A stretch of DNA of 63,288 nucleotides, the filler included, from Dehalococcoidia bacterium (lineage in GTDB: Bacteria; Chloroflexota; Dehalococcoidia; DSTF01; RBG-16-68-14), in assembly GCA_040882355.1 (NCBI GenBank). It is 5 parts of 5 records of this genome, joined end to end, with 100 filler letters (N's around TTAATTAATTAA, not from the genome) between each part and the next. Parts side by side here need not be neighbours in the genome. Positions count along the whole stretch, not along the records: positions 39,379 to 51,436 come from JBBEBM010000071.1; 4 more parts are not named here. One strand, written 5' to 3'. Shown one piece after another: positions 44,407-51,626 of this stretch. The position numbers were made by a program, and so were the translations under genes. Position 1 is the first letter of the stretch. Every line of letters starts with the position of its first letter. The notes beneath the pieces are model-generated. The model did no database searches. It worked only from the letters and a program-made list of their open reading frames with translations, and was not told the DNA's origin.

Positions 44407-46509
44407 TCAGCGAATAGCGAGTGAGCTGGCTCTCAGATCGTCCACGAACTCTGAGGGCGGCGCGACACTTGCAACGAGCAGATGATCCCTCGCACGCGTA
44501 CAGGCCACGTAGAGCAAATGGCGCTCTGTGTTGTAGACATCTTCGAGGTCGGCTTCGTCGGTGACTTCTTCGATCCTCTGCTGCAGGGGGATGATTTCGT
44601 CGTCACACGCCATCACGGCGACGGCGCGGAACTCAAGGCCCTTCGCCAGGTGCATGGTGCTGACCGAGACGTGACCGCTTCTCGTCTCGACACTCTCGTC
44701 GAGCACTACGAATGGTAGACCGGCCACCGCAACGGCAGTGCGCGCGCGGTCAAGCTGAGCGGGAGAGCGGACGAAGACGGCGAACTCGTGAGGCTTCAGC
44801 CCATCGCCGGTCAGCCGAACGATCCACTCGCCCACAGTCCTCGCTTCGTCATCGATGCTCTCACAGACCGAGATCTCCGGGGCAGGCCCATTGAACACGG
44901 AGACTGTTCCAGCGCGCTCCTCTACGTTGCCGTCGATGTCGCTGACCTCGGGTGCGAGCAGCCGGTCCGCCTGCGCGCGAATCTGGTGTGACGTCCGGTA
45001 GTTCACTCGGAGCGTCTTGGCGCGCCCGCGGATGTCGATTCCTAATGCCAGCCACGAGAACGGCTGCTGGAAGATGCGCTGGCCCAGGTCACCCGTGAAG
45101 AAGAGAGCGTTGGGGCGGCCACCGCCAAGCGCCGCGAGGAACCGCAGGTGCGCCACGCTCATGTCCTGCGCTTCATCGATGACCGCGAAGGCGAACGGCT
45201 GGCGCCCGCTGTCCCGCAGGACCGCCGCTAGTCTGGTGAACAACGCCGACTCGCTAATCAGGTTCCGCTCGGCTAGTTGCTCGCGGACCCGCTCGAAGAT
45301 CGACCACAGCATCTCCCGCTGTTTCTCCGGAAGCCTCGTCTTCCGGCCCAGCCTTCTCACGTCACGATAGTCTTCCCATGATTCCAGTTGCCATGCGTCG
45401 AATACCTGGTCCCACTCACTGACGAGGAATGATTGACTGAACTTGTGGCCGGGCACATCGGCGGAAGCTCGGTTGACGGCTGCGGCGACCTCGTCTTGGG
45501 ATGCGATGCGAGTCTCTTCGAGATGCGGCCGAAACAGCCGCTGCCCGATCGCCTGAATGGAGTGCACCTCAAGGCGCTCCGCCAGACGAGGCTCGTTGCT
45601 GATCAGCCGCCTGAGTTGCCTTCGCAGGGCGTTCGCGAGCGTATCAGAGAACGTCGTGAGTAGGACTCTCGCGTCCGGGTTTGTCCGGGCAAGGAACACC
45701 GCGCGATGCAGCGCCACGACCGTCTTGCCCGTGCCCGCCGAGCCCGACACTCGCGCCGGCCCGTTGTAATCGCGCTCGACCAACTGGCGCTGCGCCGGGT
45801 GCAGGAACACCGTCCACTTGTCCCACGGGAAGTCGAGCGCGCGTTCGAGCTCCTCAGTATCGCCGACGAGGCGGAAGCGGCGCTGGGCGTCCGGGTGAGC
45901 GAACGGATCGGCGACCGGGACTGGCGCCGCGACCTCCGGGGTACCGCCTGTGGCCAGCTCGAGCAGCGCCTCGCCGGCCTCGGCCGGGAGGTGCTCCGCC
46001 AGCGCCAGCACCGTGTCCTCATTGGCGTCCCGAACGTCAGCGAGCCATTCAGCAGGCACGCCATAGCTGAGCAGCTCGTCGTCAGGCAGGCTGGCGAACA
46101 GCTTAGGCTTCGGCGGCGCAGGCTGCTCGACTTCTACGTACTTGGGCACGAGGATTTCCTGGACCGCCTCGCGCACCTCGACGAACTGCGCCGCGCCGGT
46201 CTTCGGGTGTGTCTCAAGCCAGCGACGCTCCGCCCAGGCGTACGCCCTGTCGTGGTGGCCGACGAAGCAGAGCAGCAGGCTGCCCTCTGTCTTGTGGACG
46301 ATCAGGCGGATGTCACTGCTCACGCGCACGGACCAGAAGTTCTTGTCACGCGCCTTGTCGAGCTTGTGGAACTGCATGCCCGGGTTGGCCGGGTTCATCT
46401 GCAGATCGAACGCGGTCGTCTTGACGGCCTTCTGCTCGTCGCCTGTCAGGCGCGCCAGGCTATCGGTAAAGGTGTCAGCGATGCGAAACTCTGTCAGGCT
46501 ACCGGCCAT
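44407..46509 (-). CDS. SF1 UvrD-like helicase with an N-terminal RelE-like domain
   Basis: GSAGTGKT, DEAQD, NYRT, STMHLAKGLEF, LYVACTRA; N-terminal WSVRVSSDIRLIV...GHHD. Confidence 0.88.
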   Translation of the reverse strand: MAGSLTEFRIADTFTDSLARLTGDEQKAVKTTAFDLQMNPANPGMQFHKLDKARDKNFWSVRVSSDIRLIVHKTEGSLLLCFVGHHDRAYAWAERRWLETHPKTGAAQFVEVREAVQEILVPKYVEVEQPAPPKPKLFASLPDDELLSYGVPAEWLADVRDANEDTVLALAEHLPAEAGEALLELATGGTPEVAAPVPVADPFAHPDAQRRFRLVGDTEELERALDFPWDKWTVFLHPAQRQLVERDYNGPARVSGSAGTGKTVVALHRAVFLARTNPDARVLLTTFSDTLANALRRQLRRLISNEPRLAERLEVHSIQAIGQRLFRPHLEETRIASQDEVAAAVNRASADVPGHKFSQSFLVSEWDQVFDAWQLESWEDYRDVRRLGRKTRLPEKQREMLWSIFERVREQLAERNLISESALFTRLAAVLRDSGRQPFAFAVIDEAQDMSVAHLRFLAALGGGRPNALFFTGDLGQRIFQQPFSWLALGIDIRGRAKTLRVNYRTSHQIRAQADRLLAPEVSDIDGNVEERAGTVSVFNGPAPEISVCESIDDEARTVGEWIVRLTGDGLKPHEFAVFVRSPAQLDRARTAVAVAGLPFVVLDESVETRSGHVSVSTMHLAKGLEFRAVAVMACDDEIIPLQQRIEEVTDEADLEDVYNTERHLLYVACTRARDHLLVASVAPPSEFVDDLRASSLAIR

Positions 46510-48308
46510 AGCTGCACGGCGATATCTGCCAGCTTCTTTGACCTAGCTTCGATTTGTGCAAAGCGAAAGCCCGGATAGTCAGACGGAAGGCCACTCGTCA
46601 GCTTGAATGCAGACTCCTTGTACGCCTTCTTCTTACGAGCATAGGGGTTGTTGGATGCACCGATGTTCAGTTCACCCGCGAACAGCGTCAGATTCCCAAA
46701 CCTCCCGACAAGACGCGAATGGCGCTCCCCTGCCCCGGCCCCTAGGTAGGTCGGCCAGTCGCCAATCTGCTTCTGGAGTTTCTTGCCCCAAATCCTCTGA
46801 GGGACGATATGCTCGATGTGTACGTCCGCCGGCCCACCAGGGATTAGTTCAGGAAACTCACCTTGGAGATGCATCTCTATTTGCTCGAGGCAGTAACGCG
46901 CCCGATCCATGAGACGGGGAGTGTAGTTCGCAGCGGCAAACTCCTGCCGGAACCTCTCGTCGCTTGGAGAGTACTCGCGGTAGACTCGGCGGACCTCGAG
47001 CACGGCATTGTTTGGGTCCACCTTGGACAGGCGCGCAAAGATGCCGACGTTCTCATTCGTGCGCTCGCGACAGACGTGGCGGCGCAGCATGAAGGACTCG
47101 GTCAACTTCAGAATAGCCTCGAAGTCTTTCTCGCTGCAGCCGCCGTTGCGAAGGGTCATCAGAAATCCGTAACTCGGCTGCGCTCTAATGAGCGCCAGGT
47201 TCCTCAAGCGCCGGTCGAGTCTAGGCCGCCCGGTCTCTGCCAGAACGATCTCGCGATATGCCTGGGAGCTTGAGACGAGCCGATCCAGGAACACTGCAAA
47301 CGAGACCTTGGGTAGCAGCTTCTCCGGCTCGTCGTCATCATCGGCACGGGTCTTTTGCGCGGCTTCCATCCGAACCTCGGCTTCGTCGTCATCATCTTCC
47401 TCGTCCACGTCCGGGTCAATCGCGCGATACCGGTCCCGCTCTGGGAGCCGTTCGGCCTCTACGACCTCATTCATAAAGGCCCATTGGAACTCCTCTACCA
47501 CTAGGCCAATGGTGACCGGGGTTCCTAGGTGCGAGCTCATGTACTGTCTGAAGAAGTTCTCGGCACTGACACCGTCCAGATGGCGTACCACCTGAGCCCA
47601 CCTCTCCCTAGCGCCCTCGAGAGCTTCTTCCCCGAAGCGCGCCGCGTTTCCCAGCATGAAGTTCTTTATGATATCTGTTGAGCTTAAGCGAAGGCCGCGG
47701 TTGTTAATCGTCTCGAACAGCTTGAAGGCGTCCTTGGCGGCGCTGACATCGAGACGGACCATCGCTGCCTGGTTCCTGAGCTTATATGCGAAGTCGACAG
47801 CCTCCTCCGTAGTCTGGTTGCTGACCCGTCCTGCAACGTGGGCGAAGGCGTCCTTCAGATGGGCGTTCTCTATCTGCGGTGGCTCCTGTCCAGATGCGTG
47901 ATAGCCGAACTGCCTTGCGTCCAGTGAGTCGAGAGCAATCTTCGGCTCAACACTTCCCTTCGGTGGCTTCGCCACCAGCAGCCGCTCAACATCCTGTGCC
48001 TCGGACTCCTTGCCGTCCGACCGCAGGCGGGCCAATAGGCAGTGAAGCAGGATGCTGATCGTCGTTAGACGCTGCTGACCGTCGACAAGTTCCAGCCGGT
48101 TGATGCCGGCAGTGTGCTGATCGGTTAGGCAGACGATAGTGCCGAGAAGGTGTGTGTCAGCCTCTTCAAGCGCCGCGATGTCGTCCCAGAGGTCATCGAC
48201 TTGGTGTCTTCGCCACGAGTACCGCCTTTGATACGCTGGAATGACGTACTGCTCGATCTCCGACCCAAGCATTTGGGACACCTTCAGGGCCGTTGGAGTG
48301 ATGTTCAT
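46494..48308 (-). CDS. DUF262 + DUF1524(HNH) protein, GmrSD-like nuclease
   Basis: IPAYQRRYSW, DGQQRLTT, FETINNRG; EHIVPQ...GNLTL...N HNH motif; lower GC. Confidence 0.87.
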   Translation of the reverse strand: MNITPTALKVSQMLGSEIEQYVIPAYQRRYSWRRHQVDDLWDDIAALEEADTHLLGTIVCLTDQHTAGINRLELVDGQQRLTTISILLHCLLARLRSDGKESEAQDVERLLVAKPPKGSVEPKIALDSLDARQFGYHASGQEPPQIENAHLKDAFAHVAGRVSNQTTEEAVDFAYKLRNQAAMVRLDVSAAKDAFKLFETINNRGLRLSSTDIIKNFMLGNAARFGEEALEGARERWAQVVRHLDGVSAENFFRQYMSSHLGTPVTIGLVVEEFQWAFMNEVVEAERLPERDRYRAIDPDVDEEDDDDEAEVRMEAAQKTRADDDDEPEKLLPKVSFAVFLDRLVSSSQAYREIVLAETGRPRLDRRLRNLALIRAQPSYGFLMTLRNGGCSEKDFEAILKLTESFMLRRHVCRERTNENVGIFARLSKVDPNNAVLEVRRVYREYSPSDERFRQEFAAANYTPRLMDRARYCLEQIEMHLQGEFPELIPGGPADVHIEHIVPQRIWGKKLQKQIGDWPTYLGAGAGERHSRLVGRFGNLTLFAGELNIGASNNPYARKKKAYKESAFKLTSGLPSDYPGFRFAQIEARSKKLADIAVQLWPVA

Positions 48309-48322
48309 GAACCTGCTCCCCG

Positions 48323-51300
48323 CTACTCTACCCTGAACACCTTCATTACTTCGTCGCCGAGGTGATTGATGACCTTGACGGCGATGCGGCCCGACTCCGG
48401 CCTGTCGAACGGGCGCGACGTGTCGCTGTGGAGCGTCTCCCACGCCTCCTCGTCGATCTCGGCCTTCAGCGTCGTCTTCAGCGACTTGTAGGGATCGTTC
48501 GCGCCCAGGAAGTAGGCGTGGCGGACGAAGAAGCTCTCCTCATTGTAGTCCGTGTCGATGAACCAGCAGGCGATGCCGTCCGTGCTGTCGCTGCGCACCT
48601 CGCCGGTGCTCGGATCGAACACGTCGACGCCGCGCACGGTGATTTGTGCTTTGTGGTCAGTGGTCAGGGCGAGCGGGAAGTCCGCGGGAGCGAGCGCCTC
48701 GATTGCAGCGAGCGCTTGAGGCCAGACAGCATCCGGCCGATCTCCGCCGACCGCTCCTGCAGCTTGCTCAGCTCCTGCTCCGCCAGCAGCTCCAGCCGGT
48801 GCGCCAGGGTCAGCAACGTCTCGACCTCCGCCAGCGACCCGCTTGCCACGCTCAGAAACTGGAGGTACTCCCCCGTTCCCGTCCGCGCCGCCCCCTCCGC
48901 GATGTTCGCCGGCACCGACACTGCCGCTCTCCTGATCTGGCTCGTCAGCCCGAACCGCTCGCTCTGCGGAAAGCTCTTTGAGACGCGGTAGATCTGCTCC
49001 ACCAAGTCGATTGACCTCTTCCAGACTTCCAAGTCCCGATAGCTCTGCAACTTGGTCATAGTTCGCGACCAGCCTTCCGTTCGCGGCCACCAGCCACTGG
49101 CCACTTATCACCGTAATGTCCGGCTCGCCGAAGATCACGAACAGGTTGCCCTTCTCCGTGCTCTTCAGGTCGCCAGCCATGTGCAGGTCGGCGTTCATGC
49201 GCGCCTTCAGCACCGGCACCGGGCCCAGCTTTGAGAACTCCGTCGCGTGCGCATCGTAGTTGAAGGCGCAGGCGATCAGCACGCCGAAGCCGGCGTCCGA
49301 CGCCTCGCGCGCCGCGGCGACCAGGTCCGGGCGGATCACGGTGCCGAATTCCGGCCCGATGAAGATGCCGGCTCGCTTCTCGTTGTCGCCTTCCTTGTAG
49401 ATGCCCTCGGCGCACACGTACGCGCCGGGCCAGGGCGTGAGCGACGTGAAGACGATGCGGTCCTCCTTGTGCGCCTGCTGCACGCCCGCGACCTTCAGGT
49501 TCTCGATCACCATCTCGGGGAACGACTGCCCGGCGCTGTAGCCGTCGCCGCGGTCGCGCGCCATATCGACCAGCTCGTCGTTCTCGTCGACGCCGAGCAC
49601 GCGGTGCGGCGACAGGCTCTCGACCGTAAGCGGTCCGGCGACGCGGACGACGCGGTTGTCCTGGTACGGCTTGTCGTAGAGGTATTCGAAGTCTGCCTTC
49701 GCCGCGATCGAGGCGTCGATCTCCCTCTGGCGGGCGATGCGCGCCTCCCACCAGGCGACGTGCGCTTCCCTCGCGGCAGCGCTCCAGCCGTCATCCGCAT
49801 CCCGCGGCACCTCCCACTCTTCCCAGCCCTTTTCACCCTTCTTCCTTCTCAATTCATCATTCAGCTCCGCCAGGAGCGGCTCAAGCTGGCCCTGGTATTC
49901 TTCCCAGATCACGTCGATCTCCGCGTTGTTGGCGATCGACTTCAGGGTGACGTGCGGGACGCGCTCGTAGACGAAGCCGTGGCGGAGGTCGCCGTGCGTC
50001 GGTTGGGACGAGGGCGCCGTCTGCGTGACCTCCGCCTCCTTCTGCTGACCCTCTGGCGAGTCCTTGAGCAGGTAGTAGGGATAGCGGGCGCCCATGATCC
50101 GCGCGCGGGCCAACGCGAGGGCGACGCGTGACGTGTCGATGGTGATCCAGCGCCGGCCCCACTGCTCTGCGACGTAGGCGGTCGTGCCGGAGCCACAGGT
50201 CGGGTCGAGCACCAGGTCGCCAGGATCGGTGGTCATCAGTATGCAGCGCTCCACAACCTTTGTGTTCGTCTGGACAACAAAGAGCTTCTCATCGGTGAAC
50301 GCACCCGTCTGAGTGTCGGTCCACACGTTGCTGAACCTGGCTACTGCGAAATCCTGCAGGAACCGTACATATTGAATAGAGTTGGGTGTAGGGCTAGCGA
50401 CTCTGTAGGCGTGGATGAGCCGCAGCATGCCGTCCTCGTTTGTCTTCCAATACCCGCGACCCGGCCGAAACTCTTGTCCGGCGAAGGGCACTGGAAACGC
50501 CGATTTATCTCCACCGCTTTGCGAGGTCAAGTTATCGTGGCGGTAGACCAGCGCTCCCATCGCCAACACATCTGGATCCGCCCGCTCCGCACCTGTCAAG
50601 GCGCGGCGCTCAAGTGGTGCCAATTGCACCCGCCGATAACGTCCGCCGAGGTCCTCGGTCAACCCCTTAGACTTGAAGAGTTGGCGATACTTCAGCATGT
50701 TGTTCTTCCGACCGTACCAGAGCAGGAAGTTGCAGGCTGAATCCAGGTACAGATCACCTAGCCCGGTTGTCGTTCGGAATGAGATGAGAGAGATGAAGTT
50801 CTCTTCCCCGAATATCTCGTCCATCAATGCTCGTACGCGGTGCACGTTCTCATCACCGATCTGTACGAAGAGCGATCCTGAATCCGTGAGCAGGTCACGC
50901 GCCACTGTGAGCCGGTCGCGCAAGTAGGTCAGGTAACTGTGAACGCCGTCCCGCCAGGTGTCGCGGAATGCCTTGACTTGCTCGGGCTCCCGGGTGATGT
51001 GAGTGGCGTTACCGTCGCTGACGTTGCGGCTCGTCGTGCTCCACTGGAAGTTGCTGTTGAACTTAATGCCGTAGGGCGGGTCGATGTAGATGCACTGCAC
51101 CTTGCCGCGCAGCCCCTCGCGCTCGGCCAGGCTCGCCATCACCTGGAGCGAGTCGCCCAGGATCATGCGGTTCGACCAGTTCTGGTCGTGCTGGTAGAAC
51201 TCGGTCCGGTCAACGCCGTCTGGGATGCCGTTGAAGTCGGCGAAGAGGTCGAGCTGCTGGCCCTCGGCTGCGCCGTTGGGCGCATCGCGATGCGCCCCTA

Positions 51301-51436
51301 CACGCGACTGGCGCAGCAGGTCGTCGATGAGCACCTTGGGGTGCACCTTCTCCTGGATGTAGAGCGGCGGTGCCTGGACAACCAGGTCGCTCCAGTCCTG
51401 CTCGTCCTTGCCGCGCCAGACGAGCTGCGGGTCGAG
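48323..51436 (-). CDS. Site-specific adenine DNA methyltransferase (type III Mod-like, beta order), 5' truncated, with an ~450-bp insertion
   Basis: DPPY motif IV precedes DPTCGSGTT motif I; ORF open to the contig edge (LDPQLVWRGKD); conserved-looking C-terminus ACWFIDTDY...IAVKVINHLGDE. Confidence 0.9.
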   Translation of the reverse strand, partial: LDPQLVWRGKDEQDWSDLVVQAPPLYIQEKVHPKVLIDDLLRQSRVGAHRDAPNGAAEGQQLDLFADFNGIPDGVDRTEFYQHDQNWSNRMILGDSLQVMASLAEREGLRGKVQCIYIDPPYGIKFNSNFQWSTTSRNVSDGNATHITREPEQVKAFRDTWRDGVHSYLTYLRDRLTVARDLLTDSGSLFVQIGDENVHRVRALMDEIFGEENFISLISFRTTTGLGDLYLDSACNFLLWYGRKNNMLKYRQLFKSKGLTEDLGGRYRRVQLAPLERRALTGAERADPDVLAMGALVYRHDNLTSQSGGDKSAFPVPFAGQEFRPGRGYWKTNEDGMLRLIHAYRVASPTPNSIQYVRFLQDFAVARFSNVWTDTQTGAFTDEKLFVVQTNTKVVERCILMTTDPGDLVLDPTCGSGTTAYVAEQWGRRWITIDTSRVALALARARIMGARYPYYLLKDSPEGQQKEAEVTQTAPSSQPTHGDLRHGFVYERVPHVTLKSIANNAEIDVIWEEYQGQLEPLLAELNDELRRKKGEKGWEEWEVPRDADDGWSAAAREAHVAWWEARIARQREIDASIAAKADFEYLYDKPYQDNRVVRVAGPLTVESLSPHRVLGVDENDELVDMARDRGDGYSAGQSFPEMVIENLKVAGVQQAHKEDRIVFTSLTPWPGAYVCAEGIYKEGDNEKRAGIFIGPEFGTVIRPDLVAAAREASDAGFGVLIACAFNYDAHATEFSKLGPVPVLKARMNADLHMAGDLKSTEKGNLFVIFGEPDITVISGQWLVAANGRLVANYDQVAELSGLGSLEEVNRLGGADLPRLKELSAERAVRADEPDQESGSVGAGEHRGGGGADGNGGVPPVSERGKRVAGGGRDVADPGAPAGAAGGAGAEQAAGAVGGDRPDAVWPQALAAIEALAPADFPLALTTDHKAQITVRGVDVFDPSTGEVRSDSTDGIACWFIDTDYNEESFFVRHAYFLGANDPYKSLKTTLKAEIDEEAWETLHSDTSRPFDRPESGRIAVKVINHLGDEVMKVFRVE
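48664..49059 (-). CDS. Four-helix-bundle protein (23S rRNA IVP / Avd-like), nested in an alternate frame of the methyltransferase
   Basis: YRDLEVWKRS, FPQSERFGLTSQIRRAAVSVPANIAEG, GSLAEVET; GGAAGG upstream of the ATG. Confidence 0.9.
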   Translation of the reverse strand: MTKLQSYRDLEVWKRSIDLVEQIYRVSKSFPQSERFGLTSQIRRAAVSVPANIAEGAARTGTGEYLQFLSVASGSLAEVETLLTLAHRLELLAEQELSKLQERSAEIGRMLSGLKRSLQSRRSLPRTSRSP

Positions 51437-51536
51437 NNNNNNNNNNNNNNNNNNNNNNNNNNNNNNNNNNNNNNNNNNNNTTAATTAATTAANNNNNNNN
51501 NNNNNNNNNNNNNNNNNNNNNNNNNNNNNNNNNNNN

Positions 51537-51586
<50 letters not shown>

Positions 51587-51626
51587 ACCCAATACTTCCC
51601 TGGGTGGGAGGAAGACCGGTCGTTAC

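Follow-up and report, generated by a model that had tools for sequence, protein, structure and literature searches.

A four-helix-bundle gene nested in a frame-preserving insertion within a type III Mod-like DNA methyltransferase gene of a Dehalococcoidia bacterium

The 23S rRNA gene of Coxiella burnetii carries an intervening sequence (IVS) of 428 nt, which contains the S23p open reading frame (ORF) and is excised by RNase III, as described in the excerpted text of PMC4990558. Rickettsia palindromic elements (RPEs) enter coding genes without breaking the frame, and are translated as a peptide judged to be compatible with the fold of the host protein (excerpt of PMC10969869). Here we describe a locus related to both, found in a 63,288-nt stretch of DNA from the Dehalococcoidia bacterium assembly GCA_040882355.1 (hereafter the window, meaning this whole stretch, filler included). 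In this locus, a gene for a four-helix-bundle (FHB) protein of the rRNA-IVS family lies within an armed cassette inside a type III Mod-like DNA methyltransferase gene, which is probably translated straight across it. The 23S rRNA IVS is the closest known system in build and the RPEs are the closest in behaviour; the cassette combines an IVS-like build with an RPE-like behaviour, and adds a gene in a second frame.

The cassette shares with the 23S rRNA IVS the PF05635 family of its gene, the size class (428 nt for the IVS and 438 nt net here), the enclosure of the gene between arms, and the character of a horizontally acquired, discrete insert (excerpt of PMC4990558). It differs in that the IVS, according to the same excerpt, lies in rRNA and is cut out by RNase III and degraded, whereas the cassette is located within a methyltransferase coding sequence (CDS) and not inside an rRNA gene, is in frame, and is apparently translated. 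As for the RPEs, both are palindromic insertions in protein-coding genes that preserve the host frame, and the cassette is like them an in-frame, stop-free insertion in a CDS (excerpt of PMC10969869). RPEs, as the excerpt presents them, are however about 150 bp long, have no second-frame gene and occur in many copies in one genus, while the cassette measures about 440-480 nt, bears a conserved gene, is present as a single copy and not as many dispersed copies in its genome, and occupies one site across many phyla.

The cassette was also compared with two other kinds of gene within a gene. Inteins and homing-endonuclease genes are selfish units at conserved coding sites, which are present or absent among alleles and are exchanged between them while the host function is kept. 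The cassette likewise occupies a conserved site in a coding gene, where some alleles have it and others do not, and is exchanged between alleles; unlike in inteins, its inner gene is in another frame and not fused to the host, and the mature protein most likely retains the insert. An intein identity was rejected because no splicing domain was found among the whole-protein Pfam matches at E<=0.01, the best Pfam match of the insert peptide itself having an E of 0.28. Overprinted genes of phages and viruses give two proteins from one DNA, with one frame strongly constrained and the other mostly just open. The overlap in the window differs from these in that it came from the insertion of a ready-made gene, not from the birth of a new frame. 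Same-strand overlaps of more than 360 nt are rare in cellular genomes. A literature search, with subscription journals outside its coverage, returned no description of an FHB/IVS-family gene nested in a methyltransferase or of a heptamer-armed FHB cassette. The elements of the locus are as follows.

48323..51436, minus strand: type III Mod-like N6-adenine DNA methyltransferase, the host gene (PF01555, PADLOC, Mod structure matches).
48326..48631, minus strand: conserved C-terminal methyltransferase domain, which follows the cassette and is in frame with the upstream part (sequence comparison).
48632..49114, minus strand: cassette segment, 161 codons of the host frame that separate ...FGEPDI from GVDVF... 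(80 loci translated across the junction, filled and empty alleles aligned as DNA, contigs of relatives).
49107..49114, minus strand: ACGGTGAT, outer half of the stem and complement of 48636-48643, read by the host as T-V-I (minimum-energy fold, in which it is paired).
49084..49104, minus strand: 5' arm, three tandem heptamers GTGGCCA GTGGCTG GTGGCCG, translated as SGQWLVA in the host frame (sequence).
49073..49078, minus strand: GGAAGG, Shine-Dalgarno-like, 13 nt upstream of the ATG of the FHB gene (sequence).
48664..49059, minus strand: FHB gene, 131 aa, stop included, in the +1 frame relative to the methyltransferase (PF05635, TIGR02436, NF008911).
48653..48666, minus strand: 3' arm, two heptamers TGACCAC TGACCAC, translated as LTTDH in the host frame (sequence).
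48636..48643, minus strand: outer stem half ATCACCGT, host codons I-T-V (sequence, minimum-energy fold).

To establish what an uninterrupted allele looks like, 80 genome loci fetched with the C-terminal 105 residues of the methyltransferase alone, a query that favours neither the filled nor the empty state, were translated across the junction. FGEPDI and GVDVF lie only 30-51 nt apart in 69 of them, which have no FHB gene and read FGEPDIDILDAEDGQIQVKVNGVDVF or a close variant; eight carry an FHB gene at exactly the site of the window copy, and the remaining three have no upstream flank. The cassette replaces the 15-21-residue hairpin loop of the uninterrupted homologues, with 483 nt in place of about 45 nt, and the net gain of 438 nt is a multiple of three. 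The same net insert was found in L013, L025, L027, L069 and L070, whereas it amounts to 432 nt in L051 and 411 nt in L056, all 3n. Full-length host ORFs of 1084-1123 aa with the insert are present in L027, L051, L056 and L069. At the protein level, all 120 of the top matches listed in a search that included the insert, which come from many sources, carry it as one open frame, at 62-73% identity, and more than 100 protein clusters contain the segment. This native presence in homologues, which an earlier note on this DNA had regarded as grounds for refuting an insertion, does not refute it, because most relatives are without the segment and cassettes have been swapped between near-identical hosts. 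Other claims of that note held: the FHB gene is nested in the methyltransferase where it had been placed, the insertion preserves the frame, and removal of the insert restores the EPDI-to-GVDVF spacing that the uninterrupted homologues have. The target duplication it had considered was not found in the DNA alignment of filled and empty alleles.

The insert is not a misassembly, as independent assemblies of two further samples from the study contain contigs that cover all of it with 0 differences (X2 record 5, 48553-49145; X3 record 16, 48623-49153), which answers the check that had been proposed on this point. Contigs of uninterrupted relatives connect 48632 to 49116. Joints skipping about 483-549 nt were also observed in the DNA runs X2-X4. 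These were rejected as products of excision and are taken for uninterrupted homologues of other community members, since their flank pieces are mismatched and, in two of them, 111-122 other letters stand between the flanks. Two contigs of the RNA run X22 represent the uninterrupted gene of a relative (7 differences in 60 letters, and 111 other letters in place of the insert), not the window organism; two RNA runs shared 4% of sampled words.

The loop itself appears to tolerate change, because the length of the empty allele varies between 30 and 51 nt among the uninterrupted relatives and because a homologue on plasmid p6 of Gemmobacter fulvus (L162:420-660, annotated as site-specific DNA-methyltransferase) carries another, unrelated insert in the same loop, probably helical and about 60 residues long. 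By these comparisons the site is a general insertion hot spot. A second variable loop, from CAEGxY to EKRAxIF, bears short in-frame inserts without a gene (L002:4105-4179; L025:532-591; L057:3746-3772; L027:3697-3732). Some of these form hairpins (L002, -25.4 kcal/mol) and some consist of heptamers of the cassette type (SGQW..., ...TDHQ); they look like gene-less arm pairs through which the host would be read.

Within the cassette, no stop interrupts the methyltransferase frame on its way from FGEPDITVIS to KAQITVRGVDVF, with about 150 residues of low complexity in between. The nested protein matches PF05635 over model positions 1-106 of 106 (1.5e-39; 134.9 bits, cut-off 33.8), TIGR02436 (7.9e-38; 129 bits, cut-off 24) and NF008911 (145.5 bits, cut-off 137). 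It is the only PF05635 match in the 3.33-Mb genome, in which the heptamer-array pattern had three matches and its reversed control one. Avd and bAvd of diversity-generating retroelements are distant relatives of it (PF22296 2.4e-11, NF033474 4.5e-10). An Avd identity was rejected, the NF033474 score being 39.8 bits against an equivalog cut-off of 80, and no match to a reverse-transcriptase family was found among the four flanking ORFs scanned. The FHB genes of the eight genome-locus relatives have a stop at codon 122 (122 aa); this stop is lost in the window copy, which extends 9 codons beyond the end of its relatives and into the 3' arm (48664-48693).

A metagenome sample added four further FHB genes lying inside longer open frames, all in the same relative frame, so that the nested set comprises 13 copies: the window, the eight genome loci, L082, L087, L108 and L113. 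Complementary arms are visible in 13/13, and a heptamer array with lineage-specific units is found in the 12 copies other than the window. A purine-rich motif precedes 12 of the 13 FHB starts, as read by eye and not computed, the exception being the Balneolales copy L056. The arms vary by lineage while their complementarity is kept: GTGGCYA/TGACCAC in the window, GTTTTGA/CTCAAAA in L082 and GCAGTAGGC/GCCTACTGC in L113. The arrangement of the outer 8-bp complement ACGGTGAT/ATCACCGT is the same in L070 and L027. The I-T-V / I-T-V flanks are inverted complements within this stem, not a target duplication. The host residues TV... and ...QVTV travel with the insert, because the outermost arm units encode them.

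Whether the open host frame is selected was addressed by counting stops. A stop in this frame requires a T at position 3 of an FHB codon followed by a codon starting with AA, AG or GA. For comparison, 80 further metagenome FHB loci were taken, of which 76 had an FHB ORF and 67 were free-standing genes of 100-150 aa. No host-frame stop is present in any of the 13 nested genes, including copies at 48-53% GC, whereas 64 of the 67 free-standing genes have 1-14. At the sites at risk, a position-3 T occurs in 0/370 nested codons; at other sites of the same genes it occurs in 189/1208, and in the controls in 306/2009. A GC regression predicts 36 stops in sum over the nested genes (joint P ~2e-16, in which independence is slightly overstated because L027 and L069 are near-copies), and synonymous shuffles gave log10 P values that sum to -16.9. 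In the third frame, each nested copy has 5-12 stops. Codon entropy is lower in nested than in free FHB genes (1.17 vs 1.68 bits over 64 columns), a difference confounded by sample size and relatedness. The stop counts show that the host frame stays open in the cassette because synonymous codons that would make stops are avoided.

For the host domain that follows the cassette, the ratio of nonsynonymous to synonymous substitutions (dN/dS, by NG86) is 0.02-0.18 in 27 of the 28 pairs compared among insert-bearing loci, the other pair being saturated; synonymous sites are near saturation between the lineages compared. Inside the cassette, dN is smaller than dS when the FHB frame is read and larger when the host frame is read, in 21/21 pairs, one of them saturated at dS. 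The FHB protein sequence is thus selected as such and the host frame mainly for openness, with the C-terminal domain, which is 84-92% identical across phyla, apparently still translated in frame. Because stops are avoided and the downstream domain is selected, read-through is favoured; excision or bypass would need no open frame.

The cassette also behaves as a unit of exchange. The hosts of L013 and L051 are 87% identical over 400 columns, while their FHB proteins are 54% identical; at the DNA level, the two loci are about 72-97% identical ahead of the cassette and 93-100% identical beyond it, and only within the cassette does identity drop to 33-75%, the mark of a cassette swap. In the FHB tree, 11 Mod-nested copies and one free-standing copy form one group (SH-aLRT 90). 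The free-standing member, L100:455-820, has a pseudouridine synthase gene as its neighbour and a single stop in the host-equivalent frame; possibly it escaped from the nested lineage, or is its source. Insert-bearing rows are scattered in the host tree (FastTree, 116 rows), with 17 changes, at least 4 of which are forced by well-supported branches. In our reading of these trees, there would have been one old capture in the Mod family, followed by exchange between alleles and perhaps by losses.

Nesting is not confined to this methyltransferase family. Of the four metagenome copies, L082 and L087 are in the Mod family, L113 is in a BREX PglX gene and L108 in a PglX/DrmMI-like gene. In L113, 162 residues separate positions that are 5 residues apart in the solved BrxX, and ten PglX-type protein clusters have an insert of the L113 type. 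The FHB genes of L108 and L113 fall outside the Mod-nested group, on other branches and among free-standing relatives, which shows more than one origin of nesting. The PADLOC PglX model PDLC02522 is matched at positions ~270-415 by the host-frame peptides of the window copy, L113 and L108 (1.9e-4, 5.5e-15 and 3e-11, respectively), so that a read-through peptide of the FHB cassette is already within the curated BREX PglX model. All the nested copies seen lie in defence methylases. Free-standing FHB genes are flanked by ordinary operon genes (ruvA-ruvB, sdhA-sdhB, lpxA-lpxI, tandem MacB-type permeases), and only one free-standing copy has a restriction-type neighbour. In L082:3-2234, a divergent methyltransferase of the same family as the host, an in-frame DUF559 (Vsr-like endonuclease) domain was observed besides the nested FHB gene (fragment residues 191-297, 5.4e-39); it appears to be a second inserted module within one gene.

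Taken together, these features suggest the following course. A hairpin-armed FHB cassette of the 23S rRNA IVS kind occupies the variable loop near the Mod C-terminus. Ribosomes would translate the methyltransferase straight across it, giving an enzyme with about 146 extra loop residues in which the arms are read as SGQWLV... and ...LTTDH, and the FHB protein would be made separately from an internal start of its own. The arrangement would be old in the Mod family, with the cassette exchanged as a unit between methyltransferase alleles, and would have been nested independently in BREX PglX-type methylases from other FHB lineages. That the methyltransferase is read through the cassette while the FHB protein is translated separately is probable in our judgement. 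As for the role of the FHB protein, our guess, from its homology to Avd, is that it binds nucleic acid, perhaps the arms of its own cassette. Among the three mechanisms that the earlier note had put forward, read-through as a tolerated loop is the one that agrees with stop avoidance and purifying selection, whereas excision and bypass are not favoured and its proposal of an mRNA intervening element is not supported; its view of a compact unit of the rRNA-IVS family that spares its host gene stands.

Several observations weigh against this interpretation. Taken alone, the window copy would have an open frame by chance with P ~0.5 (synonymous shuffle) or 0.23 (free-standing controls), and the caution already voiced that its open frame is weak evidence by itself was right. 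Its stem is weak: the fold of the whole insert has z = -1.6, with 10/100 shuffles equally good, and the arm duplex is equalled by 45/200 shuffles with 80-nt flanks and 54/300 with tighter arm windows. The claim of stem-forming arms is therefore upheld for the heptamer runs and not for the strength of the stem. With 80-nt flanks, 9 of the 13 nested copies are equalled by at most 3/200 shuffles, while with the tighter windows every copy is equalled by at least 5/300; mononucleotide shuffles are moreover a poor null for G-rich versus C-rich arms. The methyltransferase is frameshifted in three of the nine insert-bearing DNA copies (the eight loci and the window), namely L013, L057 and L070. These may be hosts that are dying or errors in metagenome-assembled genomes (MAGs); the uninterrupted locus L080 is frameshifted as well. 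For the 9 DNA-level insert-bearing rows, an approximately unbiased (AU) test did not reject a single clade (p = 0.39), so that the host tree is compatible with one origin as well as with several, and because of this result several independent insertions within the Mod family are not claimed. The structure model built from 71 rows is moderate (mean pLDDT, the predicted local distance difference test score, of 66, and below 50 in the middle of the insert), so that placement of the insert on a surface hairpin depends mainly on the sequence pattern and on natural length variation. A first model of the whole 1007 aa from 18 rows (mean pLDDT 43.8) was discarded. Finally, the case for read-through is built from comparison of DNA and protein sequences, and the activity of a methyltransferase with a 146-residue loop is a prediction.

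Some of the same evidence could be explained if the methyltransferase had domesticated the segment as an additional part of itself, leaving the FHB frame as an untranslated relic. Block pLDDT reaches 76-90 for the first ~55 and the last ~25 host-frame residues of the insert, and part of the read-through peptide may fold; with only 9 of the 71 alignment rows containing the insert, these values are weak evidence. Certain codons are also fixed in the nested genes, Tyr7 being TAT in 12/12 nested copies against 14/32 controls and Ser16 being TCA in 10/11 against 2/13, and host-frame identity peaks (0.49) over FHB codons 1-35. The Coxiella IVS protein is, in addition, apparently not made in vivo (excerpt of PMC4990558). 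A relic frame would, however, hardly have remained intact and of family length in 13/13 nested copies, scored four times the PF05635 cut-off in the window, retained a Shine-Dalgarno-like motif before 12 of 13 starts, or been the frame with dN/dS below 1 in all pairs. We therefore consider domestication unlikely.

Removal at the RNA level would have the arms pair in the mRNA, followed by RNase III-like excision or by ribosomal bypass, and would yield a mature methyltransferase without the insert. It draws on the likeness of the cassette to the excised Coxiella 23S IVS with its 428 nt and same-family ORF (excerpt of PMC4990558), on the complementary arms of all 13 copies, and on the outer stem in the minimum-energy fold of the window copy. 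An open host frame is not needed in such a process, yet stops are avoided across the insert, and the stem of the window copy is no better than shuffles. RNase III cutting leaves two RNA pieces, and we know of no rejoining in bacteria. Two unjoined pieces would part the conserved C-terminal domain from the rest, although this domain is in frame with the upstream part and has no evident start of its own (a start was not scanned for). The arm energies are stronger on the sense strand in 6/13 copies and on the antisense strand in 7/13, which does not distinguish an RNA from a DNA role of the stem. Removal from the RNA is accordingly rated as quite improbable.

Short repeats are known to switch phase-variable type III mod genes on and off, and slippage by 7 nt in the heptamer arms could shift the frame and toggle the methyltransferase in a similar way, in addition to read-through. 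One copy is suggestive in this respect: in L057 (4016-4082), the distance from FGEPD to the FHB start is 66 nt instead of the 73 nt of its kin, exactly 7 nt or one heptamer fewer, and the host frame shifts at that point. This is a single case in a MAG, the arrays of 2-4 units are too short for frequent slippage, and no length variants of the arms were found in three samples of the population of the window, all of which makes such a switch very unlikely. That the gene is simply dead or dying, inactivated by the insertion and open as a by-product of high GC, would fit the chance probability of the window copy alone (0.23-0.5) and the frameshifted copies, but is highly improbable given a joint probability of ~1e-16 over 13 copies that include some at 48-53% GC, a downstream domain under purifying selection between lineages near synonymous saturation, four full-length ORFs and read-through in all 120 listed database proteins.

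The host gene has both the N6/N4 methyltransferase domain and the type III Mod model match expected of a Mod subunit. A profile search matched PF01555 at 2.9e-30, the PADLOC MTase_III model PDLC03632 matched with E=0 and 1287 bits in two stretches split at the insert, and solved Mod subunits matched host residues 46-217 (6k0w 3e-18; EcoP15I Mod, 4zcf, 3.2e-13). Its frame is open up to the end of the contig at 51436, where an N spacer follows; the gene is thus truncated at its 5' end and the 1007-aa ORF is incomplete. The GTG start listed at 51346 is an artefact, and homologues have about 100 extra N-terminal residues relative to the listed ORF. Positions 51437-51600 of the window consist of the N spacer, the linker TTAATTAATTAA and a run of about 50 G, and form the joint of two contigs; the genes on either side are not linked, because the window is a chain of MAG contigs. 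A model of window 48326-49666 was searched with Foldseek against the PDB and gave nothing at E <= 0.001. The part before the insert had weak matches to restriction endonucleases (PaqCI at E 0.009, MspJI, BamHI), with restriction-endonuclease-like rows at E ~0.01-0.1, which might hint at a nuclease-like domain there. As regards the Res helicase-nuclease gene expected beside a type III Mod gene, the contig breaks off within the 5' end of the methyltransferase on one side, and on the other side two genes lie downstream of it.

46494..48311, minus strand: GmrSD-type (DUF262/DUF1524) nuclease gene, directly downstream of the methyltransferase (PF03235 2.6e-35, PF07510 2.8e-21, PADLOC HEC-06/Orf5).
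44407..46509, minus strand: 700-aa UvrD-like helicase (PF00580, PF13361).

A UvrD-like helicase of about 700 aa with an additional N-terminal region is found downstream of the methyltransferase in three insert-bearing loci (the window; L025:1711-3834; L070:6556-8691). The genes between the two vary among these loci, the window having the GmrSD gene. The helicase may be a motor or nuclease partner of the methyltransferase system.

The locus provides a clear and statistically strong case in which cellular genes encode two proteins in different frames over ~370 nt, an overlap that arose when a finished gene was inserted into an older gene and that has been kept across many phyla. It links the decades-old puzzle of the 23S rRNA IVS protein to protein-coding hosts in which its effect is measurable: a methylase host offers a simple read-out, the methylome, and the cassette should be cleanly deletable, because empty alleles show a normal loop. 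For annotation, gene callers list a single long methylase and overlook the gene inside it. Studies of BREX or type III enzymes may unknowingly include or exclude an FHB cassette, given the content of PDLC02522 at the positions above. The idea, also raised before, that the cassette gates a defence enzyme is speculation. In a broader form, to which we give little credence for now, FHB cassette lineages have adapted to coding sequences and are traded, like homing elements, between alleles of defence methylases (type III Mod, BREX PglX, DrmMI-like), and the FHB protein may bind its own arms in the mRNA or DNA of the methylase and so set the methylase level. If this were true, the cassette would serve restriction-type immunity as an inbuilt control or addiction module, and the long-unexplained rRNA 'intervening sequence protein' family would supply the gene for mobile cassettes of a new, transposase-free kind.

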